A stretch of DNA of 64,000 bases. It comes from Ostreococcus lucimarinus (Eukaryota). The stretch lies in NCBI GenBank assembly GCA_000092065.1, contig CP000585.1; one strand, 5' to 3'. Below the pieces are notes generated by a model. That model saw nothing but the letters and a program-made list of their open reading frames with translations, searched no databases and was not told the origin of the DNA. The first letter of the stretch is position 1. Every line of letters begins with the position of its first letter. The position numbers were made by a program, and so were the translations under genes. This document shows positions 2,199 through 63,825 of this stretch, in pieces.

Positions 2199-2281
2199 GC
2201 GCAGCGATCATCGCGCCGCAGCTTCTCGTCAGTCTTAGCGAATGCCTTTTAAACTCTAATTACAGACAAAGCGAGATAACA

Positions 2282-4885: not shown

Positions 4886-5051
4886 CGCGCGTCGCGGTCG
4901 CGATCGAGCGTCGCGATTTCGGGGTCGCGCGCGTCGTGCGCAGCGCGCGTCGCGCGGCGCTCGCGCGCGTCGTCGCGCGCGCGCGTGTGCGGGACGGCGT
5001 CGAACGCGTTCGCGACGCCATCGCGCGCGTCCCGCACACGCGCGCGCGGCG

Positions 5052-9997: not shown

Positions 9998-12268
9998 TTA
10001 CGCGTTCAACTGTCGCGTGAGGGTCTCAAACTTCTCTTGAAGAAGCTTTTCGCGCGTTCGCGCGGCTTCCACAAGCTCGAGCCAGTATTCGATTCTATTA
10101 GGCGCTGCGCGTTCTTCTTGCACGTGCAAAACGGCGTAAGACGCCGCCTCAGTGGACAAAGCCTTGACTTCCTCCACAGTCTTCTTCAGTTTGTTGCACA
10201 ATTCTCCATTCCGCTTCTGAAGCCCGGCCGTGAGGAGGATACATTTTTGCTCCAACTTGGCTGCGCGTTTTGCGTCCTTCTCCATTTCCCCTCTAACGAG
10301 TTCGAAAGTCGCTTTTGCCGCTTCGAGCTGTTGTTCTTTCGACGCTTCATCGACAGAGATCTGCGCATTGAGACTCGGTACGAAAATAAGTTTCTTCCGC
10401 TCCGCGACGAGCGCAGCGGAGAAGGCTTCGGCGAAATCTTCTCTCGACACGTTTTGCTCTCGCAACATCTCATCAGCCTCCGTATCGACGAGTCGACGGG
10501 CCGCCACGAGCAAAGATTCGTCAAAATCTTCGAGTGCGGGCGCGGACTTGGACTTCTTGCCATATTTGGCGATGTCGTTCTCAAGCAAGGCGTGCGCCTC
10601 TTCGTTGACGAGCTTCGAAATCGAATCCTCGGCGAGCGGCGCGACTGGCGTCAACTCAGTCGGTCGAGGTAAATCGCGCTGGACAGCTTGGGAGCGCTTA
10701 CGGCGTTGAATCGCTTCATACTCCGCCAAGGCCGCGGCTTCGCGCGCACGAACGTCGGCTTCATCTTCCACGACGGCGTCCTCCATCGGCTCGTCTTCCA
10801 TCGGCTCGTCTGGGAGATCAATTTGATATTCGTTTTGTGGCTTCGGAAGCGACATGAACGCACTCTTCAATGAGGCAGCAGTCGACGCAGTGTGTGCACG
10901 TCGCTCTCGCGCCGAGAGATCGCCGAAGTGCGAGGCATACTGGTCGTTGATGTTCAATCCGTCGCGAATGGGCGTTTGCCCGTGCAGTGACGGCGTCGCG
11001 CCCATGTGCGAGCTCACATCACTTCGCGACGGCGTCGGTGCCGCTTTCGCGTGGCTTGGCGTCGCACCAGCAAAGTCAGTGGGCATGACGGCCGCCGCCT
11101 CTTCAGCACCACCGAATAAAGTCGACTGTTGTTGACGTCGGGCGGCTTGCTGCTGGGCCTCGATCAAAATCGCGTCGCCCCCGACTTGAGGCGTTCGCAT
11201 CGGCGTTCGCCCGGCTAATCCGGACGAGGTCGCCGGCGTTTGCCCGTATGATCCTAATAGCCCAGATGCAGGCGTCGCGCTGCCGTCGTCGAGCAAGCCG
11301 ACGCCTCCTTTGCCAATCTTTGCGATGTCCTCCAGCTCTCGGTCAGACACTTGCGGCGTCGGTAACATGAGCTTCGATCGTCGAAAAAACGACGCGTCGT
11401 TCACTTTGAGCGCTTGTTGTACTGCACCGGGCATATCGCGACGCTCTTGCATTTTCTGTTTCGCCGCCTCACGCTTCTTGCTCTCTTCGTCTAATTGCTT
11501 TGCGCTCTTCTTCCCTTCGAGCTCGGCGAGCGAAATTGGTTTAAACACCTTTGCAGATTGCTGCTTTGCAAATGCTTCGTCTTCTTCGCGCGTATCGTAC
11601 ATCACTGCGTCCGGCTTTCGTTCAAACGCGATTTCGGCGTTGTAATCCACGCCTCGAACGCGCTTTGCGCGCCGCACGTGTGCGATTCCTGCCGCCTTCA
11701 GTTCGCGCTTCTTTTGCAACTCAGCCAACCTTCTCGCCTCCTCCAACTGCTTCTCCCGTGCTTTTCGCTTCGCTTTTTTACCCTTCGTGTTCGCAAGTCT
11801 CGCTCGAGCCTCAGCGAGCATCTCCTTCTCGTCTTCATCCATATCCACCGCATCCGGTTTCGCCGGCTTCGTCTCTGGGTTAGGGTCAATTTCCCCCGGA
11901 CGCAGTCTTCTCGGATCATCTCCGGCGTCGTAATCGTCATCCTTCGCGCACGCCGCATCGAGTAACTTCTCATATCTCTCCAAGCACTGACTCGGCGTCC
12001 GTCCGACCACGGGCGCGATCGTTCTCCACTGCGTCGGCATCAATTTCGCCAGGTGCAGCAGCTTTTCGTCCTCCTCCCGCGTCCACTCCGTCTTTTTGAT
12101 GCTCGGATCGAGCCATTCGAACCATCGCGCTTTGCACTGCTTCGCCGACTTCCGATTCAACAGCGACGCGATTCTCGGCCACTGGTTCTTGCCGTACTTC
12201 ATCACCGCCGCCTTTAAGATCTCATCTTCGGTGTTTTTCCACACGCCGCCTTTGATTTGGATGCGCAT
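9998..12268 (-). CDS. CDC5: Cell division cycle 5-like protein (CDC5/CEF1), Myb-domain pre-mRNA splicing factor
   Basis: MRIQIKGGVWKNTEDEILKAAVMKYGKNQWPRIASLLNRKSAKQCKARWFEWLDPSIKKTEWTREEDEKLLHLAKLMPTQWRTIAPVVGRTPSQCLERYEKLL is near-identical to the CDC5L N-terminal tandem Myb repeats. It is a 756-aa single-exon ORF. Confidence 0.85.
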   Translation of the reverse strand: MRIQIKGGVWKNTEDEILKAAVMKYGKNQWPRIASLLNRKSAKQCKARWFEWLDPSIKKTEWTREEDEKLLHLAKLMPTQWRTIAPVVGRTPSQCLERYEKLLDAACAKDDDYDAGDDPRRLRPGEIDPNPETKPAKPDAVDMDEDEKEMLAEARARLANTKGKKAKRKAREKQLEEARRLAELQKKRELKAAGIAHVRRAKRVRGVDYNAEIAFERKPDAVMYDTREEDEAFAKQQSAKVFKPISLAELEGKKSAKQLDEESKKREAAKQKMQERRDMPGAVQQALKVNDASFFRRSKLMLPTPQVSDRELEDIAKIGKGGVGLLDDGSATPASGLLGSYGQTPATSSGLAGRTPMRTPQVGGDAILIEAQQQAARRQQQSTLFGGAEEAAAVMPTDFAGATPSHAKAAPTPSRSDVSSHMGATPSLHGQTPIRDGLNINDQYASHFGDLSARERRAHTASTAASLKSAFMSLPKPQNEYQIDLPDEPMEDEPMEDAVVEDEADVRAREAAALAEYEAIQRRKRSQAVQRDLPRPTELTPVAPLAEDSISKLVNEEAHALLENDIAKYGKKSKSAPALEDFDESLLVAARRLVDTEADEMLREQNVSREDFAEAFSAALVAERKKLIFVPSLNAQISVDEASKEQQLEAAKATFELVRGEMEKDAKRAAKLEQKCILLTAGLQKRNGELCNKLKKTVEEVKALSTEAASYAVLHVQEERAAPNRIEYWLELVEAARTREKLLQEKFETLTRQLNA

Positions 12269-12693: not shown

Positions 12694-13950
12694 TTAGACG
12701 TTGACGGCGCCGCCCTTCTTGGAGCCGCTCGGGTCTTCACTGTACGCCTTCGCGCCGTGCATGGAGACGTCCAAGCCCATCCTGCGGTCGCCTTCGCGGG
12801 GGACGACATCCATGAACTTTTCGAGAACCTTGATGATGGCGTAGCCCATGACGAAGGAGTACGCGGCGCAGCCGACGGCGGCGAGCAGCTGCTTGCCGAA
12901 GAGCTTACCGCCAGCTTCGAAGGCATTCCCAGTCATGGCGGCGCTGGAGAAGATGCCGACGCAGAGGGTACCGAAGAAACCACCCATACCGTGCACGGCC
13001 CACACATCGAGCGCGTCGTCGAGGTTGTACTTCTTCGTGAGTTCGATGCACGCGTAGCACCACGGCACGCAGAGCGTACCGATGGTGAGCGCGGCCCACG
13101 GCTTGACGTACGCGGCGCACGGCGTGATGGTGGCCAAACCAGCGATAGCGCCGACGCAGGCGCCAACAAGGGTGGGCTTGCCTTCCATCTTCCACTCGAG
13201 CATGAGCCAGAAGAAGAGAGCGGCGGAGGCGGAGATTTCAGAGTTCATCGCGGCGAGCGCGGCCGACTCGTTCGCCGCAAGGGCGGAGCCGCCGTTGAAA
13301 CCGAACCAGCCGAACCAGAGAAGACCGGTGCCGAGGGCAACGAAAGGGATGTTGTGCGGGTTGGTGTCGACGTCGTCACCCTCGAGCTTTCGGCGGTTGG
13401 GCAGCGCCACGACGGTGGCCAAGGCGGAGAAGCCCGCGGTGATGTGCACGACGATGCCGCCGGCGAAATCCTTGACGCCGTTGCGAGCCATCCAGCCCCC
13501 GCCCCACACCCAGTGGGCGAACGGGAAGTACACCAAGTGCACCCAGAAGAAGATGAACAGGACGTACGGCACGAATCGCACGCGATCCGCGAACGCGCCC
13601 GTCATCAGGCTCGGCGCGATGACGGCGAACATGCCTTGGAATCCCGCGAACACGAGCCCCGGCATCCCCTCGGCGTACGGCAATTCTTGCGTCGCCAAGT
13701 TTTCCAGGAAGTAGTGCGTGCGCGCGCTGCCGATCACGCCGTTCTTCGACGTCCCGAAGCACAGCGAGTACCCCCAGACGGCCCAAACCAGCGTGATCAA
13801 TCCCATCGACACGTAATTTTGCATCATGATCGTCAGCACGTTGGACGATCGCACGAGACCGCCGTAGAAGAACGCCAGTCCCGGCGTCATGAGGTTCACG
13901 AGCGCCATGGAGACGATCATGAACGCGGTGGTGCCCGCATCGATGGCCAT
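12694..13950 (-). CDS. AMT: Ammonium transporter, Amt/MEP family
   Basis: The 418-aa ORF has 11 predicted TM helices and Amt signature blocks (GLAFFYGGLVR, FAGGIVVHITAGFSAL, MGGFFGTLCVGIF). An AT-rich region with TATATATTA lies about 100 bp upstream at 14044-14060. Confidence 0.85.
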   Translation of the reverse strand: MAIDAGTTAFMIVSMALVNLMTPGLAFFYGGLVRSSNVLTIMMQNYVSMGLITLVWAVWGYSLCFGTSKNGVIGSARTHYFLENLATQELPYAEGMPGLVFAGFQGMFAVIAPSLMTGAFADRVRFVPYVLFIFFWVHLVYFPFAHWVWGGGWMARNGVKDFAGGIVVHITAGFSALATVVALPNRRKLEGDDVDTNPHNIPFVALGTGLLWFGWFGFNGGSALAANESAALAAMNSEISASAALFFWLMLEWKMEGKPTLVGACVGAIAGLATITPCAAYVKPWAALTIGTLCVPWCYACIELTKKYNLDDALDVWAVHGMGGFFGTLCVGIFSSAAMTGNAFEAGGKLFGKQLLAAVGCAAYSFVMGYAIIKVLEKFMDVVPREGDRRMGLDVSMHGAKAYSEDPSGSKKGGAVNV

Positions 13951-14060: not shown

Positions 14061-14820
14061 GAAGGCTTTAAATACGTATTTCTCTGTGAGTATGATTTAT
14101 CTTGCGTGTAGATACTGTATGTACAAACAGTGACACATTAGATACGACGCCCCGGGGGAACTTCGGCGAATTCAATCGACACCGCCGCGCGCGCGCCATC
14201 GAGCGACGCGGGCGGCGCGCATGTCGCGCGCGCGCGCGAGATGCGACGCGATGCCGTCGACGATCGCACCCCGCGCGCCCGCGCGCGCGTTCGCGTCCAA
14301 ACGCGCGCTGGACGCGATGCGAAAGCTGCGCGAACGATGCGACGACGGGCGTCGCGCGGTGCGCGACGCGCTCGCGGCGAGCGCGGACGCGCTCCGAGGG
14401 ACGCGCGCGAGCGCGAAGGAGACGGAGACGGCGATGGAGGCGTTCGTGAACGGGGCGAGGGAGGTGCTGACGCGATCGGGCGATCGGACGGGGGTGGGGA
14501 AGGAGAACGAGAGGTGCGACGCGGCGACGCGAGCGACGCGCCAACAGTTATCTCGCGAGACGCGAGGACGAGACGAGAGACGAACGGGACGGGCGCGATG
14601 GACGACGCGGGAGGGCGGTCGAGGGATGAAATCAATTGTGGTGACGCGTGGATCAGCGCGATCGGTGGTCAGAGCTCGAGGCGCGCGAGGGTGAAGACGA
14701 ATGGAAGACTGACGACGAAGACGCGCCGCGCGGCGCGCGACGGCGACGCGCAGCGCGAAAGCGACGACGACGACGCGCGGGAGCGCGAGGAAGAGCGGCG
14801 GCGCGCACGCCTCGAAAGGT

Positions 14821-16781: not shown

Positions 16782-18590
16782 CTATGTCTTGACGGGATGG
16801 CCGTTTTCATCCAAACCTTCGACGCGCGGAAAGAGAGCGAGCTTTTCAACCTTAGTTCCCGGCTTCAATCCGCCCCATTTCGTTCGTTGTGCGATCGATC
16901 CCTCACCAAGGCCGACTCCAGCGTCGAATTCCGCCATCTTGTTGGGCATCAAAGGCTCCAACAACACCGCGGCGATGCGAAGCGCTTCGAGGCACTGGTA
17001 CAAACAAGCCGCCAATTCGGCGCTCTTTGACTCGTCCTTAGCCATGCGGAAAGGCTCGGTTTCCGTGATGAATAAATCGACATCCATGACGATGTTTTTC
17101 GCCGCCGCTGCGGCGCGAGGAAGGTCCAACTTGTCGTACGCCGTCAACGCGTCTTGAACGTGCGCGCTCGTGCGCGCCGGCCAGTCCCAGTTATCGAACG
17201 TCACCCGCGCACCGTTCGCCTCTTCGCTTCGCACTTCGCCGTCGAAGTACTTGTTAATCATCGCGGTCGTACGACTGACGCTGTTACCCATGGTATTCAC
17301 TAGATCGCTCGAATAGATTTCTTGAACGCGTTCGGCGCTAAAGTTGGCGTCTTGCGCGCCGATCGGTCCTTCGACGGCGAGATAGTATCGCATCGCATCC
17401 AAACCGTAATGCTCCTTGAATCGATCCATGCAAGCCAAATCAACGAAGTTACCTAGTGATTTCGACATCTTGCGTCCCTCGCGAATCCAGAAAGCGTGCG
17501 CGTGCACGCGCTGAGGAAGCGGCAAATCGAGCGCCATGAGGAGCGCGGGCCAAATCACCGAGTGAAACCAAGAAATTTCCTTGGCCATGATGTGCATGCT
17601 CGCGGGCCAGTACTTGGATCGATCGGCGTAAACGATGGAATCCTTACCATCGCCAAGACCGATAGCGGTGATGTAATTCATCAACGCGTCGATCCACACG
17701 TAAATGACGTGCTTTTCGTCATCCGGCATCGGGATGCCCCACTTGAAGTTGGTACGCGAAATCGGCACGTCGTTCAACCCTTCATTCAATCGACCGATCA
17801 TCTCGTTACGCCTCGCGCTGGGCGTCAAAAAATCTGGGTTATCAGCGTGCAGCGCCTCGAGCTCCTTCTGGAACTTGCTCAATCGAAAGTAATAATTTTC
17901 CTCGCTCGAGCGAACCATATCCTTTCCGCTAATCGGGCTCTTGTAATCGAGCTCCTTCGCCTTGGATTCGGTGTAATACTCCTCTTGTCCTTCGTCGTAC
18001 CACCCCTCAAAGCGACCCAAGTACACCGCATCCTTCTCCTGCAGCACCTTCACCAACGCCCGCACTTGTCTCTCGTGATAATCATCCGTCGTGCGAATAA
18101 ACTCGTCGAAGGAAATATCGTACGCCGTCATGACGTCGCGAAACTTTTGACTATTCTCATCCGCCAACGCCTGCGGTTCGATCCCTCGCTTCTCCGCGCT
18201 TTGCTCCACCTTCAATCCGTGTTCATCCGTGCCCGTGAGAAAGAACACGTCCTCCCCACGCGCCCTTCGATACCTCGCGTACGCGTCCGCCACCGTCGAC
18301 GTGTACACGTGCCCGATGTGCGGCTGATCGTTCACGTAATATATCGGCGTCGTCACGAACGTCGGCCCTTCGCTCGCGCGCGCCGCGACCGCGCATCCCC
18401 GTCCGCGCGTCGTCGCTCGCGTCGTCGCCGCGCGCGCGACGCATCCGCGCGTCGCCGTCGCCGTCGCCGCCGTCGCCGTCGTCGTCACCGCCGTCGTCCG
18501 CGTTCGTCCCGCGACCGTCGTCGCGCGTCGCGCGCGCGCCGTCCGTCGCGACAGCATCATCACCCGCGACGTCGCGGACGCGAGCGCCAT
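16782..18590 (-). CDS. MARS: Methionyl-tRNA synthetase, organellar type
   Basis: [28 protein letters not shown] carries the class-I HIGH motif. [11 protein letters not shown] carries KMSKS. A Ser/Thr/Arg-rich presequence ([26 protein letters not shown]) starts at the first plausible ATG, 18590, inside track ORF 16782..19049. Confidence 0.8.
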
Positions 18591-24718: not shown

Positions 24719-25650
24719 ATGACCGCGCTCGAAGAAATCTCCACCGACGAGCTCATGCGCGAGATTCAGCGGCGGCTGGAGTGCCAAAATAAGCCAGACA
24801 AGCGCTTGATCCTCATCGGTCCGCCGGGATGCGGCAAGGTGCGCGTTTTCGACCGTCAACTTCGACCGTCAAAACCTCAAAAAGCGCGCTTCGGGACACC
24901 CGACTGACGACGCGTCTCGACGCCGAACAGGGAACGCAATCGCCTAAGATTAAATCCGACCACTGCCTGTGCCACCTCGCGACGGGGGACATGTTACGCG
25001 CGGCGGTGGCGGCGAAAACGCCGAACGGCGTGAAGGCCAAGCAAGCCATGGAGAGCGGAGCGCTCGTGAGCGACGATATCGTGGTCGGGTGCGTGTGGAG
25101 CGTTGCGATGGCGCGTTCGAGCGCGAGTGATGATACACGAGGCCCTACGCTGTGTTCTTGTGTCCTGCGCGGTGACTGACAGAGATGCTTCACTTGTGAA
25201 TGTAGGATTATCGAGGAAGCCGTCAAGGCGCCCGAGTGCCGAAACGGTTTCATTTTGGACGGGTTCCCGAGAACGGTGCCGCAAGCGGTGAAGTTGGACG
25301 AGATGCTCTCTGCGAAAGGGGTATCGATCGATGCAGTGCTGAACTTTGAAGTGCCGGATGAGGTACTCGTAGAAAGGGTGGAGGGACGATGGATCCACCC
25401 CGCGAGCGGGCGATCGTACCACACGAAGTTTGCTCCGCCGAAGGTTGAAGGGAAGGATGATTTCACGGGAGAACCTTTAATTAAGCGTAAGGATGACAAC
25501 GCGGAGACCCTTAAGTCACGCTTGCAAGCGTTTCACACGCAAACGCAACCGGTTATCGATTACTACGCGATAGCAAAGAAGGTTACTGAAATTCACGCCA
25601 ACAAACCAGCCAGCGATGTCGAAGCGCAAATTGCAGCGGCGTTGAAGTAG
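24719..25650 (+). CDS. ADK: Adenylate kinase, three exons: join(24719..24838, 24931..25088, 25206..25650)
   Basis: Exon 1 encodes [40 protein letters not shown] (P-loop). Exon 2 encodes [53 protein letters not shown]. Exon 3 encodes [34 protein letters not shown]...[61 protein letters not shown]... The three are collinear with plant ADK1. The introns are 92 and 117 bp, phase 0 and phase 2. The donors are GTGCGC and GTGCGT. The acceptors are CAG and TAG. CTGAC branch motifs lie 25-30 nt upstream of the AG. The spliced length of 723 nt gives 240 aa. Confidence 0.8.
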
Positions 25651-29278: not shown

Positions 29279-30180
29279 ATGGGGACGGATACATTGGAAA
29301 AGTTGCGCTCGGCGGCGATGGACGAATTGGACGCGTTTGCGGCGCGCGAGCCCGAGAGGGCGTTGGAGTTAAAGGTGCGATCGGTGAACGGTTCACGCGT
29401 GGGATGTGCACACGAATGGGAGCACGTGTCGTCACGTGTGCGTGAGACTGAATGACGCGTTTGTCGTGATTGCGTTAGAAACTTTGCGAAGACGCAGAGG
29501 CGAGGCGCGGTCAAATGCGCCGACTCAGAACTCGACTCGAGCAAGTCGCCGATTTTGAACGTGAGACCGCGGCGCAGACGCGAGAAAGCATCGATGCGTT
29601 GGAAGCACGCATACGCACGTTAGAAGATCTCGTGCGTGCGCGAGACGCGGCCGTACGGGAAAGCGAACAGGCGAGGCTGACGTTGCTCGAGAAGACGAAA
29701 CGCCTTCAAGCCGAAGCGTCGACGCGAGCGGACGATCTTGAACTCAACGTGCAACGCGCGAAGCGAATGGAGGAAACAGTTGCGCTATTGACGAGTAAGG
29801 TAGCCGATCTCGAGCGCGTGCGCTTGGAAAACACCGAGCTTTACGGTGAGTTGGATGAAAATAAACGCGCCGCCGTCGCGCTCGAACGACAGGTGGACTT
29901 GTACAGAGAAACCGCGCGAGCCGCGGAGAGCCGGCAACTCACCGCCGAACTCGCGGCGGCAAAGAGCGAAGCGCTATTGAAGCAATACCTCTCCTCTCCA
30001 GCGGGCGAAGACCGTTTACGTCTCGAAAATCGCATCGGCGCGTTGCAAGAAAAGATTCGAGACTTGTCCACGAAGGAATCCCGCCTCGCCGAGCGCTTTC
30101 GCACGGTGCTCACCGACGAGCTCGCGAGCACTCGACACGCGCTCGCACTCGAAAAGCTTCGCACGACTAGCACTTTTTAA
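29279..30180 (+). CDS. Coiled-coil protein, proposed two exons: join(29279..29374, 29479..30180)
   Basis: Track ORF 29515..30180 encodes a heptad-rich coiled-coil (LEDLVRARDAAVRESEQARLTLLEKTKRLQAE...). It continues upstream in frame to an AG at 29477-29478. A short ORF at 29279..29374 (MGTDTLEKLRSAAMDELDAFAAREPERALELK) ends at a GTGCGA donor. A phase-0 join across this 104-bp intron gives a 265-aa product. The donor type is the same as in the adenylate kinase and NOP10 introns. Confidence 0.4.
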
Positions 30181-37295: not shown

Positions 37296-37631
37296 CTAAA
37301 TCCCGTCGCCTCCGCCCCGCGCGCGTCCTCGCAGCAGCGTCGCCTTGGCCTCGTTGATCTTCGTGCTCAGAAACGCCGACCCGCCCGCGTCGGGATGGTT
37401 CGCCATCATCACGCGTCGGTGCGCGTCGAGCACGCGCTGCCGCGCCGCGCCCTCGCGGACGCCGAGGATGAGCGCGGCTTCGCGCCGGGTCATCGTCGCC
37501 TCGAATCCGCCGTGGTAAAACGCGCGCGCGCGCGGGCCGGCGAGCGCCCACGCCTCGACCGTCGTCACGACGGCGCGCGCGGCGAGCGCGGTCGCGGCGA
37601 CGGCGAGGCCGGTGACCAGGGGCGTGGCCAT
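37296..37631 (-). CDS. TIM14: Mitochondrial import inner membrane translocase subunit TIM14/PAM18 (DNAJC19)
   Basis: [22 protein letters not shown] is a TM helix. [53 protein letters not shown] is a J domain. It aligns with the human DNAJC19 sequence [53 protein letters not shown]. Confidence 0.75.
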   Translation of the reverse strand: [111 protein letters not shown]

Positions 37632-37788
37632 CCGCGCCGCGCGTCGAGGAGTGACGACATCGGCGACGCCCCGCGACCGCATTCGACGACGTGCGCGCGA
37701 CCGCGACGCGTCGATCGCGGCGATCGCGGCCGCGACGCGCGACGGACGCGCGCGAGACCGCGCGAGGGACGTCGACGGGGGTCTCGCG

Positions 37789-43196: not shown

Positions 43197-44591
43197 TCAT
43201 TTCCCCCAATCGTCATCGCCCCAGTCTTCATCCGGTTCTTTCGCGGACTTTTCCTCTTCCGAGTCGCTCACGCCCCACTCGTCGAGTGCGCTCGCGGACT
43301 GCGTTCGACTCGACGAACGGCTCGCATTTTGGTTCGCGCGCTGCGGCTGCGGCCGCGGCTGGCTCTGCGCGCTCTGAAAACTCGACGAGCTGCCGAATCC
43401 AGCGTACTTACCGCCTTGCGATGGGGGTAAGTTTGACGGACGATGCGAGTTTTCGGCTTGCTTACGGGCGAAGAAGTCGTCTCGCTGCGCGGCGACGGGA
43501 TCGCGATCGCGCCGCTCTGCGTCGTCCCAGCCCGCGCCCCAACCGTCGTTTTTCCGTTGTGCGTATTGCGGGTCGGCGCTGTTACCGCCGCGAGGAAATC
43601 CATCGTCGAATCCCGTGGTGGGGATATCGCTCGTCAAGGTTTCGATCGACTTCATCGCTTGCCCGGAGACGGCTTTGAAAAAACCCCAACCTTGCTTCGC
43701 GAGTTCCGACGCCTTATTCGCCGCCACGGTCGCGGTTTGCGACGCGCGATGCTGAAGCTGATCGTAGTCTCCGTCAGAGATGTTGCTCACGATGGACGAC
43801 GTCGCCTGCGCCGCGCGGTTCGCCGCGCTCATCGTAAACTGCCCGAGCTTGGACGTCACGTTGCTCACCTGCCCGATGATGGCCTCGAACTCGTCCTCCT
43901 GCCGCGGCGCGCCGCCACCGCCCGATCCAAACCCGACGTACTTCCCGCCCTGACTCGGATGCAACCCCTCGGGCTTATTCGCGTTCAACGCTTGCTGCCG
44001 CGCGAAGAACGCGTCCTTTTGCGCCGCGCTCGCCGCGTACTCCGACGCCGTGTACTCCTCTCCCGGTCTCGCGCCCGCGCGTCCGCGCCCTCGCCCGTCG
44101 TCTATCCCACCATCATTCCACCCCCCCCCATCGCCTCCGTGCCCTCGTCCTCGGCCCTCCGCGTCTCGACGCGTCTCCGCGTCTTCTCGCCGCGCGCCTC
44201 GCTCGACCCGCGTCGGCGCCGTCCACGCCTCCCCGTTCGCCTCCGCCGCGACCTTCTCCCTGAACACCCGCGCCGCGTCGGAATTATACTTTTCCTTTAT
44301 CGCCGTCCGTCTCGGCACGCCGTGTCGCTCCAAGAACGCGTTCAACGCGTCGTTCCCGCCCGCCCGCATCTTCGCCAGCTGCGCCGCGCTCCACGAATCC
44401 ATCGACGCCGATCGCACGAAGCTCACGTGCACGCCCAGCGATCTGTGCACGCCCGAGCACTCCAAGCACACGAACGCGCCGTGCGACACGCTCGCCCACT
44501 GCGGGTTCTTCGTCTCGCAGTCCGCGCACTGCGCGTTGCCGTCCGCGCGCTGGAGCGCGCGAAGCGCGTCGCGCGCGTCCGGCGACGCCAT
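43197..44591 (-). CDS. ADP-ribosylation factor GTPase-activating protein (ArfGAP1-type)
   Basis: [71 protein letters not shown] is the ArfGAP C4 zinc-finger domain. The C-terminal region is Gly/Ser-rich with repeated GGKYVGFGS and GGKYAGFGS motifs. The first plausible ATG is 44591. Confidence 0.8.
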
Positions 44592-44849
44592 GGCGCGCGT
44601 CGAGCGCTCGACGTCCCGAGCGCGTCGAGCGATACAGCGAGACGCGCGTCCGAGACGATCGAGAGACGCGCGCGCGCGTCCGGCCGCGATCGCGCGGCGC
44701 GATGGCGAGATTCGCGATCGGAATCTCCGCGTCCGAGACGTCCGAGACGTCCGAGACGATCGAGCGACGCGAGCGTTCGCGAACGGCAGTCGCGCGCGCG
44801 CCCACACGCGATCGAGGCGCGCGTGCGATACGACGAACGCGGCGTCGCG

Positions 44850-45998
44850 ATGCCGAGCTTCCGCGATCGCGCGCACGCGGACGCGCGCGCGGCGCGCGCG
44901 GCGCCGGCGTACGCGCACCCGACGGCGAAGGAGCGCGAGTCGATGGCGCAGATGCGCGCGTGGTTGGCGCGCGATGGATCGGCGCTGCCGCGCACGATGA
45001 CGCGCGCGGAGTGCGGTGGGGAAGAGCGCGCGCTGTTGAAGTTCGTGCGGGCGAGGAAGAGCGCGGAGAAGTCGTACGAGATGCTGAGGAACACGCTGGC
45101 GTGGCGGGCGAGGGAACGCGTGGACGCGTGCCTGTCGGAACCGATCGACGACGATAAATTGAAACACGTGGAGAGGATACCGGCGTATTACGCCGGGTTC
45201 GGGAAGACTGGACATCCGATCTACGTCGAGCACACGGCGGTGATTCCGTGGCCGACGATATTGGAGCACATGACGGCGGATGAGTTTTTGAAGAGTCAGG
45301 TGCAGACGCTCGAGTGGCAGGCGAGCGTGGTGTATCCGGAGGCGTCGCGACGGGCGGGGGAGCCGATCACGCAGGTGATTAACGTTTGGGATTTGAAAGG
45401 GCTCACCATGAGTGGGTTCACGAGCGAGATCAGGGCGTTCGTGAAGAAGGCGAGCGCGGTGGCGCAGGACAATTATCCCGAAGGATTGTACGCCGCGTAC
45501 ATCGTCAACGCCCCGAAGATTTTCTCCTTCGTTTGGGCGGTGGTTAAGCAGTTTTTAGACGCTAAAACGGTGGCTAAGGTGCACATTTACGGCAGTGGGT
45601 CGAAAATGTACGAAAAACTCTTAGATAGGCTCGGGCCGGCGACGCTGCTGCGCAAGGAGATGCTGTGCTGCCGGACGAAAGAAATCGGCGAAGCCGAGGC
45701 GGCCGCCGGGTTGCAACCCGCGCACGGTGCCACGCAAGAATGGATCAAATCGCAGCTAAAGGGCGAGGAACCCACGGGTGGGGCCGCCCCTGGATCGCTC
45801 CGTCGCGAGAGTAGCACGCAGAACCTGTACGACGTCTTCTTCGACGCCGCATCCGAACTTCCGCCGTCGTCCATGACCGAAAGGGAACTCGAACGATACG
45901 CGACGACAAAAGACTCGTTCGGACTGGCGAGCGAACAACCCGATGCGCTCGCACCGGATGTCGTGGACGAGAAGCAGAAGTGTTGCAAATGTTGCTAG
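44850..45998 (+). CDS. SEC14-like phosphatidylinositol transfer protein (CRAL-TRIO domain)
   Basis: [32 protein letters not shown] is the CRAL-TRIO N-terminal region. [20 protein letters not shown]...[20 protein letters not shown]...[38 protein letters not shown] is the lipid-binding domain. The first plausible ATG is 44850. The gene is divergent from ArfGAP. Confidence 0.75.
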
Positions 45999-46488: not shown

Positions 46489-46767
46489 CAAGTACCTGCG
46501 TTCGTTCGCGCGCGTTCGACGCGCGTCAGTCGCTCGCGTTCGCGTCCCGTCGCCGCTCGAAATTCCGGCGGCGGCGATCGCCTCTCGGCGTTTCCGCGCC
46601 GTCCCCGTCCCGCGTCCGCGACGCCGCGTCCGCGTCCGCGATCGCGCGCGCGTCGCGCGATTCTCGCCCGCGCGTCGCGTCGTCGCGTCGTCGCGTCGTC
46701 GCGCGCACGCACATGTCGCTCGTGACCTCGCGTCGCGCAATGCCGAATCGGCATTCGCCGGCGCGCC

Positions 46768-49290: not shown

Positions 49291-49699
49291 ATCGATCCCA
49301 CGACCCTGCGTCGCCCCATCTCCTCGCTGCTTCGTCCCGTTCGCCCCATCGGCCGCGCGTCAGTCTCCATCGCCTCCCCGTCGCGCGTCTCGCCTCTCTT
49401 CGCGCATCGCGTCGCCATCCGCGTCGCGATCCTCGTCGGCGTGGATGGTGTTACGCATCCATCGATTCGCGTCGCGTCGCGTCGCGTCGCGCCGCCGCGC
49501 CGCCGCGCCGTCGTCGCTCGCACCTGGTGCGTCTCGCCCACGCGCTCGTACCCCGCGGTCCAGTTCTTGAGCGCGTCCATCGTCGTCGCGCTGTGCCGCG
49601 CGTCGTCACTCCATCGCGCGCGCGTCGTCGCGCCTCCATGCTCGCGCCGCTCGCGCGCGTCGCGCGTCGCGCGAGGACGACGGCCGAGGACGCGTCGTC

Positions 49700-50857
49700 G
49701 TGGTCGGCGGCGGCGCGGCGGGCGTCGCGTGCGCGCGCGCGCTCGCGGCGACGCGCGAGGTGACGCTGTTCGACGGCGGACGCGCGCCGGGAGGGCGGGC
49801 GTCGACGCGAGAGGGACGAAGAGGGGCGTGGGAGCACGGCGCGCGCTTCGTCGACGTCGAACGCGAACGCGAACGGGAACGCGACGACGACGACGACGAC
49901 GCAGCGGACGCGTGGATGCGAGACAGAGCGCGCGAGGGCGCGTTCGTAAGATGGGAAGGCGCGGTGGTGGCGCTGCGCGGCGGACGCGCGGTGAAGAAAA
50001 GGCTGGGCGCGCGACGGACGGCGACGCCGTCGTTCGGCGCCGTCGCGAAGGCGCTGCTCGAAAAGGTGGATTTGCGCGCGAGCGCGCGCGTCGTCGGGTT
50101 CGACGCGAGCGACGTCGACGGCGCGGGCGTGGTGGTGAAGTATCGAAGCGCGGCGCCGGACGAGGGAGGCGAGACGCGGTCGATGTCGGGGTTCGACGTG
50201 GTGGTGCTGGCGGATAAGAACGCGGCGAACGTCGCGGACGCGTTGGGCGTGGAAGAGCTCGCGCGAGCGATGCGGGAGGTGCCGTCGGTGCCGTCGTTGG
50301 TGTTGATGGTGACTTTGAATCGCGCGCCGGCGATCGAATTCGTGGGGGCTGAGATTGAGAACGACGACGCGTTGAGTTGGATCTCGAACGAGTCGTCGAA
50401 ACCGTCGCGGCGGCGCGACGCCAACTGTTGGGTCGCGCACTCCACCGACGCGTACGCGCGCGCGAAAGTGAATCTCGACACGCGTCCCGGAACTCGCGAG
50501 CACGACGCGTGGATGGACGCGGTCGCGAACGAGATGAGCGAGTCGTTGTTGCGAATTCTTCGCGAAGCCGAGGCGAACGCCGACGTCGACGTCGACGGCG
50601 CTCCGCTGGAGATTACGTACGCGCGCGCCCATCGCTGGGGCGCCGCGTTCCCGGCGGCCGTCGCCGCGGGCGCCGAAAAGTCCAAATTTCTTCGCGCCAC
50701 GTCGACGTCGCCGACCGGTCGCGTCACCACCGTGTACGCCGTCGGCGACTATTGCGTCGAGCACGATAGATTCGGCGGCTTTCGCGCCGCCGTCGCGAGC
50801 GGTCTCGCCTGCGCCGAAGACATACTCGCGACGAAATCGGCGCGTTCAAAACTTTAG
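49700..50857 (+). CDS. FAD/NAD(P)-binding oxidoreductase, renalase/amine-oxidase-like; the first exon is probably upstream (proposed join 49445..49526 + 49689..50857)
   Basis: The track ORF starts at a GTG inside the dinucleotide-binding motif RVVVVGGGAAGVACARALAA. The first in-frame ATG would delete the Rossmann fold. An in-frame TGA lies at 49568-49570. The proposed exon 1 is ATG 49445..49526 (MVLRIHRFASRRVASRRRAAAPSSLAP), followed by a GTGCGT donor and an acceptor AG at 49687-49688. This phase-1 join yields ...LAPGRVVVVGGGAAG. Confidence 0.55.
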   Translation: MVGGGAAGVACARALAATREVTLFDGGRAPGGRASTREGRRGAWEHGARFVDVERERERERDDDDDDAADAWMRDRAREGAFVRWEGAVVALRGGRAVKKRLGARRTATPSFGAVAKALLEKVDLRASARVVGFDASDVDGAGVVVKYRSAAPDEGGETRSMSGFDVVVLADKNAANVADALGVEELARAMREVPSVPSLVLMVTLNRAPAIEFVGAEIENDDALSWISNESSKPSRRRDANCWVAHSTDAYARAKVNLDTRPGTREHDAWMDAVANEMSESLLRILREAEANADVDVDGAPLEITYARAHRWGAAFPAAVAAGAEKSKFLRATSTSPTGRVTTVYAVGDYCVEHDRFGGFRAAVASGLACAEDILATKSARSKL

Positions 50858-60514: not shown

Positions 60515-61102
60515 GATGCTCGCGCGCACGACCGCACCGACTCGCACGACCGCCACGCTGCGCAGGTGCGCGCGAAGCGCGACGCGAATCGCGGCGCGGC
60601 GCGACCGCGCGCGCGACCGGAGACCGAGGACGCGCGACCGGAGACCGAGGACGCGAGGACGAGGGAATCGTCGCGCGAGGCGCGGCGAGGCGAGCGATCG
60701 CGCGCGCGAACGGACGAGAGGACTGACGAGACGCGATGGTGACGAATGAATAGCCGCGTGGCGAAGCAAACGCGCACGGCGAAGCGCGGCGCGCGCGTCG
60801 CGGCGCGCGCGTTCGATGACGTGAACGTCGTGATCTCGTCGGCGAACGCGATTTGCCTGGCGTTGGGACGATTCGTGTTTTTGCCGTACCAACGCGCGCA
60901 AGTCGAACGCGTGGGCGCGCCGACGCAAAACGGACAGACGCACTTCGCGGCGGGCGACTCGCGCGCGGAGGAGGCGTCCTTCATCGTGTCGACGAACGAT
61001 CCGGCTGGGTTCACGATCGTGGACCTGCTCGCGTGGGGGTCCATCGGGCACGCCGTCGGATTTCTCGCGCTCGCGTCCCAGTCGGCGCAAACGATGTTGT
61101 GA
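60515..61102 (+). CDS. PSAG: Photosystem I reaction centre subunit PSI-G (PsaG/PsaK family), two exons: join(60515..60564, 60754..61102)
   Basis: Track ORF 60746..61102 encodes [71 protein letters not shown]. This matches Arabidopsis PsaG ([71 protein letters not shown]). Upstream exon 60515..60564 (MLARTTAPTRTTATLR) ends in AG followed by a GTGCGC donor. The 189-bp intron has GACTGAC 25 nt before the TAG acceptor at 60751-60753. The phase-2 join gives a 132-aa precursor with a typical transit peptide. A TATTTAAG TATA box lies at 60417-60424. Confidence 0.65.
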
Positions 61103-63611: not shown

Positions 63612-63825
63612 AAACGTCTCTTCGTCTTCCGAACGCGATCATCGCCCGCCGCGCGCCGCGCGCGCGGCGTCACACGCGCGCGCGCGACGACGCGATCGAT
63701 CGACGCGCGCGCGACGGACGCGCGCGGCGAACGCGCGCGCGGCGCGAGACGACGCGCGGCGCGACGTCGGGGACTCGAATTCGGACGGTTCGGTGAAAGC
63801 CGCGCGCGGCGAGGCGTCGGTGACG

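Follow-up and report, generated by a model that had tools for sequence, protein, structure and literature searches.

Near-uniform donor and branch-site signals in the introns of a 64-kb stretch of Ostreococcus lucimarinus nuclear DNA

Introns of the adenylate kinase (AK) gene and of several other genes in this region of Ostreococcus lucimarinus appear to share a donor beginning with GTGCG and a CTGAC motif a short distance before the acceptor. Do such short motifs represent true splice signals, do they hold for each of the introns that can be identified around them, and can they be used as a key to introns that gene models have missed? Ostreococcus lucimarinus is a picoplanktonic green alga of the Mamiellales. 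The window, meaning the whole stretch of 64,000 nucleotides that was analysed, is nuclear DNA. Its products include six with exact identity to proteins of O. lucimarinus CCE9901: four are spliced products, and two come from single-exon ORFs:

9998-12268, minus strand: CDC5/CEF1, single-exon ORF, full-length identity to XP_001417909.1 (O. lucimarinus CCE9901)
12694-13950, minus strand: Amt ammonium transporter, single-exon ORF, full-length identity to XP_001417910.1

By base counts, the G+C content is ~63% overall; individual 2-kb windows lie between 54 and 72%. Introns are sparse (about eight in 64 kb), and an Rfam scan found no snRNA genes in the window.

The AK gene is divided into three exons by two introns (here and below, a slash between bases marks a splice boundary, exon bases at the boundary are in lower case, and the distance given after the branch motif is that from the branch A to the 3′ end of the intron):

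24719..24838, plus strand: AK exon 1, from the ATG to GCGK of the P-loop
24839..24930, plus strand: AK intron 1, 92 nt; aag/GTGCGCGT, CGACTGACG, 23 nt, ACAG/gga
24931..25088, plus strand: AK exon 2
25089..25205, plus strand: AK intron 2, 117 nt; cgg/GTGCGTGT, TGACTGACA, 26 nt, GTAG/gat
25206..25650, plus strand: AK exon 3, stop codon included

The spliced protein (240 aa) is identical to XP_001417670.1, and its Pfam ADK match (E=3.7e-58) spans the junctions. Logan contigs from six different public runs (L009-L014) encode AK without interruption and skip exactly 24839-24930 and 25089-25205. A sister product (P0160) retains intron 1 with intron 2 spliced out, and another product (P0154) has an MMETSP transcriptome as its source; the AK contigs are therefore derived from RNA and are not intron-less alleles. 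In a related Ostreococcus, AK intron 1 lies at the same codon, with GTGCGG at its start, CGACTGACG 23 nt before CAG, and a diverged body. Intron 2 is absent from the AK gene of the related species (L024/L025).

Two other genes, PsaG and NOP10, have introns of the same appearance, and NOP10 has a candidate for a second one in its 5′ UTR:

60566-60753, plus strand: PsaG (PSI_PSAK) intron, 188 nt, within the region of the transit peptide; cag/GTGCGCGC, GGACTGACG, 27 nt, ATAG/ccg
46443->46340, minus strand: NOP10 intron, 104 nt; aag/GTGCGCGA, CGACTGACG, 22 nt, GCAG/aaa
46712->46496, minus strand: candidate NOP10 5′-UTR intron, 217 nt, proposed from its signals; cat/GTGCGTGC, CGACTGACG, 30 nt, GCAG/gta

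For PsaG, the exact 110-nt exon-exon junction is present in two Logan contigs (L007, L008), and the spliced product has a Pfam PSI_PSAK match across the junction (E=8e-21). The start of this intron had been placed at 60565 in an earlier note on this DNA, one base too early. The spliced NOP10 product (61 aa) is identical to XP_001417920.1. Its Pfam Nop10p match (residues 1-49, E=8.9e-25) runs unbroken over the junction at residue 15/16; a search for a NOP10 transcript contig found none. The acceptor of the candidate 5′-UTR intron would lie 7 nt upstream of the NOP10 ATG. The earlier note had regarded AK introns 1 and 2, NOP10, and PsaG as well supported and had claimed that all four begin with GTGCG and carry CTGAC 20-40 nt before the acceptor. 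Both claims hold when the introns are read directly: each has the donor, and CTGAC is found at 23, 26, 22, and 27 nt, respectively.

Two more introns had been put forward as speculative, and their outcomes differ:

29375..29478, plus strand: intron in the gene for a coiled-coil protein (XP_001417671.1), 104 nt; aag/GTGCGATC, GAGACTGAATGACG, TTAG/aaa
49527..49688, plus strand: intron proposed for a NAD/FAD oxidoreductase gene; unsupported

The first is confirmed: RNA-derived Logan contigs from three runs (L015-L017) skip 29375-29478 exactly, and the 265-aa product spliced across it is the NCBI model XP_001417671.1. It begins with GTGCGAT and has no exact CTGAC; it carries ACTGAATGAC, i.e., ACTGAA and AATGAC, and the near-matches in the branch region GAGACTGAATGACG lie 23-27 nt before TTAG. 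Because this RNA-confirmed intron is without an exact CTGAC, the branch motif is not invariant, and the earlier statement that CTGAC was missing only from 49527-49688 was wrong. The second proposal fails. The plus-strand intron has a GAG acceptor and no CTRAY motif near its end, the oxidoreductase ortholog of a related Ostreococcus (L023) starts at its own ATG without an intron, and the spliced product is absent from the protein collection. In its favor, the intron keeps the reading frame, and with it the oxidoreductase would gain the start that its NCBI model (XP_001417678.1, marked “partial”) lacks. The better intron at this locus is on the opposite strand, in an ankyrin gene (49523->49327).

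The usefulness of the signals as a search key depends on how they are written. Expectations were taken from 200 dinucleotide-preserving shuffles of the window. GTGCG was counted 350 times over both strands (359 expected), CTGAC 66 times (98.5 expected, i.e., rarer than chance), and the loose combination GTGCG...CTGAC...AG, for which the earlier note had suggested a scan, 19 times (28 expected). The loose key is useless alone because its hits fall below the shuffle expectation, and short motifs alone are unsuitable as a genome-wide key. The extended form behaves differently: G/GTGCG...GACTGAC...AG at 18-35 nt was observed six times against 0.43 expected, and none of the 200 shuffles reached six. 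The suggestion that the signals could reveal cryptic introns can therefore be kept for the extended form, which gave three further introns, and has to be dropped for the loose one.

The same selectivity can be seen when sites are followed one by one. AG/GTGCG with ACTGAC within 300 nt occurs at six sites, all of them supported or well-founded introns and three of them absent from the earlier list. There are 18 AG/GTGCG sites in total: these six, the 29375 donor as a seventh, and 11 inside coding segments. The 16 ACTGAC sites divide into seven in the listed introns, one in the candidate NOP10 5′-UTR intron, one that is intergenic, and seven that lie sense or antisense inside strongly coding ORFs. 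GACTGAC at 17274, 28357, and 56220 was attributed to chance, each site being antisense to a strongly coding ORF, and a candidate at 32918->32840 was rejected (its length is not a multiple of 3 and it lies within an intact ORF). No plausible donor was found for GACTGACG at 2233 (minus strand), in an AT-rich intergenic stretch, and no intron signals were found in the regions upstream of the ORFs at 37519, 18550, and 63638. A check that makes no use of the motifs looked for ORFs whose coding sequence extends upstream past their first ATG. The genes it picked out include the oxidoreductase, the INCENP-like gene, and the ankyrin gene; the latter two resolved into signal-bearing introns and the oxidoreductase did not. 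A gene map based on codon usage gave helpful context but is unreliable in DNA this rich in G+C: near 37.3-37.6 kb it placed a J-domain gene of the minus strand on the plus strand. For an 851-aa ORF at 43443-45998, no encoding contigs are on record.

The three introns found with the extended signal, and the mini-exon that belongs to one of them, are:

57473->57357, minus strand: intron of the gene that encodes XP_001417923.1, 117 nt; gag/GTGCGCGC, AGACTGACG, 21 nt, ACAG/gga
49580->49524, minus strand: upstream mini-exon of the ankyrin-repeat gene, in frame, encoding MDALKNWTAGYERVGETHQ
49523->49327 or 49330, minus strand: predicted first intron of the ankyrin-repeat gene, 194-197 nt; cag/GTGCGAGC, AGACTGACG, 30-33 nt, AAG or CAG
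14514..14753, plus strand: intron predicted in an INCENP-like gene, 240 nt; gag/GTGCGACG, AGACTGACG, 41 nt, GCGCAG/cgc

Splicing over 57473->57357 gives a 555-aa product identical to the NCBI model XP_001417923.1; the contigs recovered for this gene were all unspliced (L018, L019; 519-aa product) and colinear with the genome. The main ORF of the ankyrin gene has no ATG near its top. At the orthologous locus of the related Ostreococcus (L023), the mini-exon is conserved, with 12 of 19 residues identical and four codons that differ synonymously only, and the same codon after it is followed by GTGCGTG and then by TGATTGACG 27 nt before GCAG. The choice between the two ankyrin acceptors (49327 and 49330) is uncertain, and none of three spliced models is present in the protein collection. 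For the ankyrin product, the encoding contigs (L020-L022) run colinear with the genomic DNA and are uninformative on splicing. The JGI metagenome contigs are uninformative as well: the predicted ankyrin junction is absent from them, but so is the proven junction between AK exons 1 and 2. The ankyrin donor on the minus strand and the donor proposed at 49527 on the plus strand stand back to back. The 49.3-49.7 kb segment may hold two divergent genes, each with its first exon inside the first intron of the other.

In the INCENP-like gene, two stops, both in frame, lie between the N-terminal ORF and the ORF with the INCENP_ARK-bind domain, and the downstream ORF has 96 coding-like codons upstream of its first ATG. 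Homologs keep “ERCV” at the intron point, which is the translation of GAGAG/GTGCGT. The DNA of one ortholog (L026) has, at the same codon, GAGAG/GTGCGTG, AGACTGACG, and CGCAG 31 nt later; this intron stretch is 120 nt long, free of stops, and read through by the ORF caller. There is an alternative acceptor for the predicted intron at 14720, and neither of two spliced INCENP-like models is in the protein collection.

Eight introns are thus identified in the window, and the lengths of 90-190 bp given in the earlier note widen to 92-240 nt when the further introns are included. When the eight are tabulated, all start with GTGCG. Position +6 is C in four, A in three, and T in one, a small sample, and +7 is G in six of eight. 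The exon base before the donor is G in every case, as part of AG in seven of eight and of AG or GG in all eight. ACTGAC is present in 7/8 introns and the extended GACTGACG in 6/8. The distance from the branch A of ACTGAC to the 3′ end is 21, 22, 23, 26, 27, 30-33, and 41 nt: six introns fall within 21-33 nt, and the INCENP-like one is at 41 nt. Put in terms of the CTRAY branch consensus, CTGAC lies 21-41 nt before the 3′ end in seven of the eight, and the 29375 intron has CTGAA and ATGAC at 23-27 nt. All eight have GT...AG ends and a YAG acceptor, and the last 22 nt are not enriched in pyrimidines (pyrimidine fraction 0.23-0.55). A CGCAG acceptor is seen in the INCENP-like, NOP10, and candidate NOP10 5′-UTR introns.

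Four of the eight (AK 1, AK 2, 29375-29478, and PsaG) are excised exactly in RNA-derived contigs; the other four (NOP10, 57473->57357, ankyrin, and INCENP-like) are predicted on a basis other than transcripts. All four cDNA-defined introns start with GTGCG and three of them carry ACTGAC 23-27 nt before the end. From base composition, the chance of GCG at +3 to +5 is ~0.03 per intron, which for 4/4 cDNA-defined introns comes to roughly 1e-6. The supported introns, 722 nt in all, contain five of the 16 ACTGAC sites in the window, where ~0.09 would be expected. At orthologous positions in related Ostreococcus, it is the signals and not the intron bodies that are conserved: the AK 1, ankyrin, and INCENP-like introns keep GTGCG and (C or T)TGAC at the same codon.

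Taken as a set, these are almost certainly ordinary major-type GT-AG spliceosomal introns of the canonical Ostreococcus class, which is well described from this intron-poor genome except for an atypical part of chromosome 2. In this class the spliceosome meets three near-identical signals each time. The first is the donor, AG/GTGCG(Y or A)G. The second is the branch site, (G)ACTGAC(G), with its second A as the presumed branch nucleotide. The third is the first YAG about 20-35 nt beyond the branch, reached without a polypyrimidine tract in between. CUGAC conforms to the CTRAY branch consensus and would pair with the GUAGUA box of U2 through one G.U wobble, leaving the second A bulged. AG/GUGCGU would pair with the standard 5′ end of U1 at all positions but two, +3G forming a wobble and +4C a mismatch. 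Given standard U2 sequences, additional pairing outside the core would not account for the extension of the branch motif to GACTGACG.

Among the other explanations, the one that survives best is that the uniformity is partly an artefact of annotation, with gene finders and motif searches finding only those introns that look like GTGCG and ACTGAC. The 57473->57357 and NOP10 introns do rest on NCBI models and on their signals (NOP10 also on Pfam), the models behind these two may be the work of gene finders whose training used these very signals, and it was a motif search that turned up the ankyrin and INCENP-like introns; further introns with other signals may also be present in the window. This explanation is nevertheless unlikely, as the four RNA-defined introns are independent of annotation, the published consensus comes from 319 EST-confirmed introns (PMC2483917), and the motif-free check flagged the INCENP-like and ankyrin genes, which resolved into introns with the signal.

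A separate splicing system is a good deal less probable still. It could be of the U12 type, or it could be a second spliceosome with altered snRNAs, leaving the conventional one to chromosome 2. The donor is atypical (+3G, +4C), chromosome 2 introns use different signals, and the possibility was raised by Irimia and Roy (PMC2483917). However, no intron here carries the U12 donor (A or G)TATCCTT or the U12 branch TCCTTAAC, only single copies of the spliceosomal RNAs were found in O. tauri (as cited in PMC2483917), and in five Mamiellales the single strong U1 candidate is reported to have a standard pairing region (bioRxiv 10.1101/2022.06.08.495308). The idea of a mobile intron family, i.e., introner elements as in Micromonas, with uniform signals inherited from a common element, is highly improbable. 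IE-C introners of Micromonas RCC299 do carry the same GACTGACG (PMC3879977), but their copies have similar bodies, unlike the introns here: an all-against-all comparison of ten intron sequences from this window found only CG-rich low-complexity matches of 9-21 nt and no shared body. The spread of lengths (92-240 nt) and the diverged body of AK intron 1 at the same codon in the related species also argue against it. Chance, meaning short motifs in a CG-rich genome (63% G+C) with boundaries chosen by the earlier reader to show them, has a negligible probability: GTGCG is as frequent as in the shuffles and the loose composite is below them, but this reading is refuted by the motif-independent cDNA boundaries, by the excess of the extended composite, and by the same signals at orthologous codons in other species.

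The assignment to the canonical class agrees with published work on this genome. Irimia and Roy (2008; PLoS Genet 4:e1000148, PMC2483917) examined 319 EST-confirmed introns outside chromosome 2 and reported an atypical donor consensus, GTGCGTG (4.8 bits), and ACTGAC in 87% and GACTGACG in 66.5% of introns. CGCAG was a preferred acceptor, and the branch-to-AG distances formed a broad peak at 20-35 nt. In their interpretation, intron-poor genomes have converged on strict signals, and the earlier note's remark that extended signals are typical of such genomes is thus the published reading for O. lucimarinus. Compared with their set, the donor, ACTGAC, GACTGACG, and spacing in the window are alike and nothing substantial differs; +6 is more often C or A than T, and one confirmed intron has ACTGAA and AATGAC. 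The atypical introns of the intron-dense chromosome 2 region (BOC1) of Ostreococcus are of another kind (40-65 nt, GTRNGT, weak or no branch motif; PMC2367439, PMC2483917). The window introns, with lengths of 92-240 nt, a GTGCG donor, and a strong branch motif, do not belong to it.

Related signals are found in other lineages. For canonical introns in Micromonas (RCC299 and CCMP1545), Verhelst et al. (2013; PMC3879977) gave AG/GTGCGT with NCTGAC and called the class common to all Mamiellophyceae; the motifs are the same as here, whereas the predicted branch in Micromonas lies 43-52 nt from the acceptor, against ~21-33 nt in the window. Roy and Bowser (2022; bioRxiv 10.1101/2022.06.08.495308) reported a donor preference of GYGCGY in Mamiellales and, in five of these algae, a single strong U1 candidate with a standard pairing region and no compensatory change. 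In Mastigamoeba balamuthi the donor is almost the same (GUGCGC), but U1 has an altered pairing region, ACGUAC, that matches +4C, while the Mamiellales U1 is reported as unchanged (bioRxiv 10.1101/2022.06.08.495308). Hemiascomycete yeasts likewise have few introns with a near-invariant extended donor and branch (GTATGT...TACTAAC), and they share an atypical +4 pyrimidine unmatched by U1 and, in several species, a constrained branch-to-AG distance. The motifs differ (GTATGT and ACTAAC as against GTGCG and ACTGAC), and the evolutionary origin is independent.

Could such constrained signals mean that introns are recognized in a mechanistically unusual way, beyond purifying selection in an intron-poor genome? 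The question is already in the literature, and a positive answer seems doubtful. An unusual mode is suggested because the +4C cannot be paired by a standard U1 and because no polypyrimidine tract lies between branch and acceptor. Speculatively, a protein, or U2 or U6, reading the branch and positions +5/+6 might dominate, with U1 pairing secondary. A changed U1, U2, or U6 box matching GUGCG or GACUGACG would support co-evolved machinery; standard boxes would not.

Every element of the signals and of their interpretation has already been published, in 2008 and later for the Mamiellales as a whole, and the present result is a correct rediscovery. It adds little new biology, and its value is for annotation. 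The extended signal recovers every intron of the window that carries it. Public gene models at several of these loci are apparently missing or incomplete: the ankyrin mini-exon, the N-terminal exon of the INCENP-like gene, the spliced transit peptide of PsaG, and the start-less oxidoreductase. The possible 5′-UTR intron of NOP10 would also be of value to annotation.

Two of the introns shown to be excised in RNA-derived contigs lie in the adenylate kinase gene, and they differ in their distribution among close relatives. Intron 1 is common to O. lucimarinus and a related Ostreococcus ortholog, whereas intron 2 (25089-25205) is present in O. lucimarinus and missing from that ortholog (metagenome contigs L024 and L025, 2001-2699), a difference between close species that amounts to the gain or loss of an intron. 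In addition, a product encoded on a public RNA-derived contig (P0160, sister to the spliced adenylate kinase) has intron 1 (24839-24930) kept and read through and intron 2 spliced out, a sign that natural samples contain either a retained intron or an intermediate of splicing.

The PsaG intron may also be read in more than one way. Its 3′ end (60746-60753) holds an internal ATG in frame with exon 2, and the serine codon at the junction is identical whether it is formed from the terminal AG of the intron plus C or from the AG of exon 1 plus C. Because of this intronic ATG and the unchanged serine codon, translation of unspliced RNA could give a PsaG whose N-terminus is shorter (MNSRVAKQ...). 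The spliced product of 132 aa was found only in RNA-derived contigs, and none of the NCBI proteins corresponds to it.

The features predicted from the extended splice signal at NOP10 and at the ankyrin gene are as follows:

46496-46712, minus strand: candidate NOP10 5′-UTR intron, with perfect signals
49580 to 49524, minus strand: predicted first exon of the ankyrin gene, 57 nt
49523 to 49327, minus strand: predicted intron of the ankyrin gene

The candidate NOP10 intron has the donor GTGCGTGC preceded by cat, the branch motif CGACTGACG and a GCAG 30 nt on, and it would end 7 nt upstream of the NOP10 start codon. CG-rich low-complexity stretches with a mutual identity of about 78-82% occur at 46623-46705, 1433-1527, 4926-4983 and 63675-63760; three independent public contigs carrying the ankyrin product (L020-L022) all break at 46677, adjoining one such stretch.

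At 49300-49720, two divergent genes, one on each strand, overlap head to head. No in-frame ATG precedes the Rossmann motif (49700) of the plus-strand oxidoreductase, for which NCBI gives a “partial” model. If the plus-strand intron 49527-49688 proposed in the earlier note, which we judge unsupported, were real, the first exon of each gene would lie within the first intron of the other and the two GTGCG donors would stand back to back, with 49524-49526 common to both.

Across both strands of the whole window CTGAC is scarce (66 observed against 98.5 ± 9 expected from dinucleotide shuffles, a count below that of 200 of 200 shuffles), and ACTGAC is infrequent outside introns. The scarcity could reflect avoidance of cryptic branch sites or be a by-product of codon usage. 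One perfect GACTGACG lies at 2228-2240 (minus strand) in an AT-rich intergenic stretch flanked by two minus-strand genes; the non-coding sequence upstream of it contains no GTGCG donor. Elsewhere, a short minus-strand ORF at about 37300-37640 resembles by eye a Tim14/Pam18 J-domain protein (…MTRREAALILGV…HPDAGGS…), and it sits where the codon model had put the start of a large plus-strand gene.

The predicted intron of the INCENP-like gene (14514-14753, plus strand) has counterparts in relatives that are without stops and a multiple of three in length (120 nt; L026, a related-species ortholog, 915-1034). As a result, prokaryote-style gene callers translate the intron together with the exons, giving proteins that carry a spurious “ERCV...” insert. 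Stop-free introns of this kind are a general pitfall wherever proteins of G+C-rich picoeukaryotes are derived from metagenomes.
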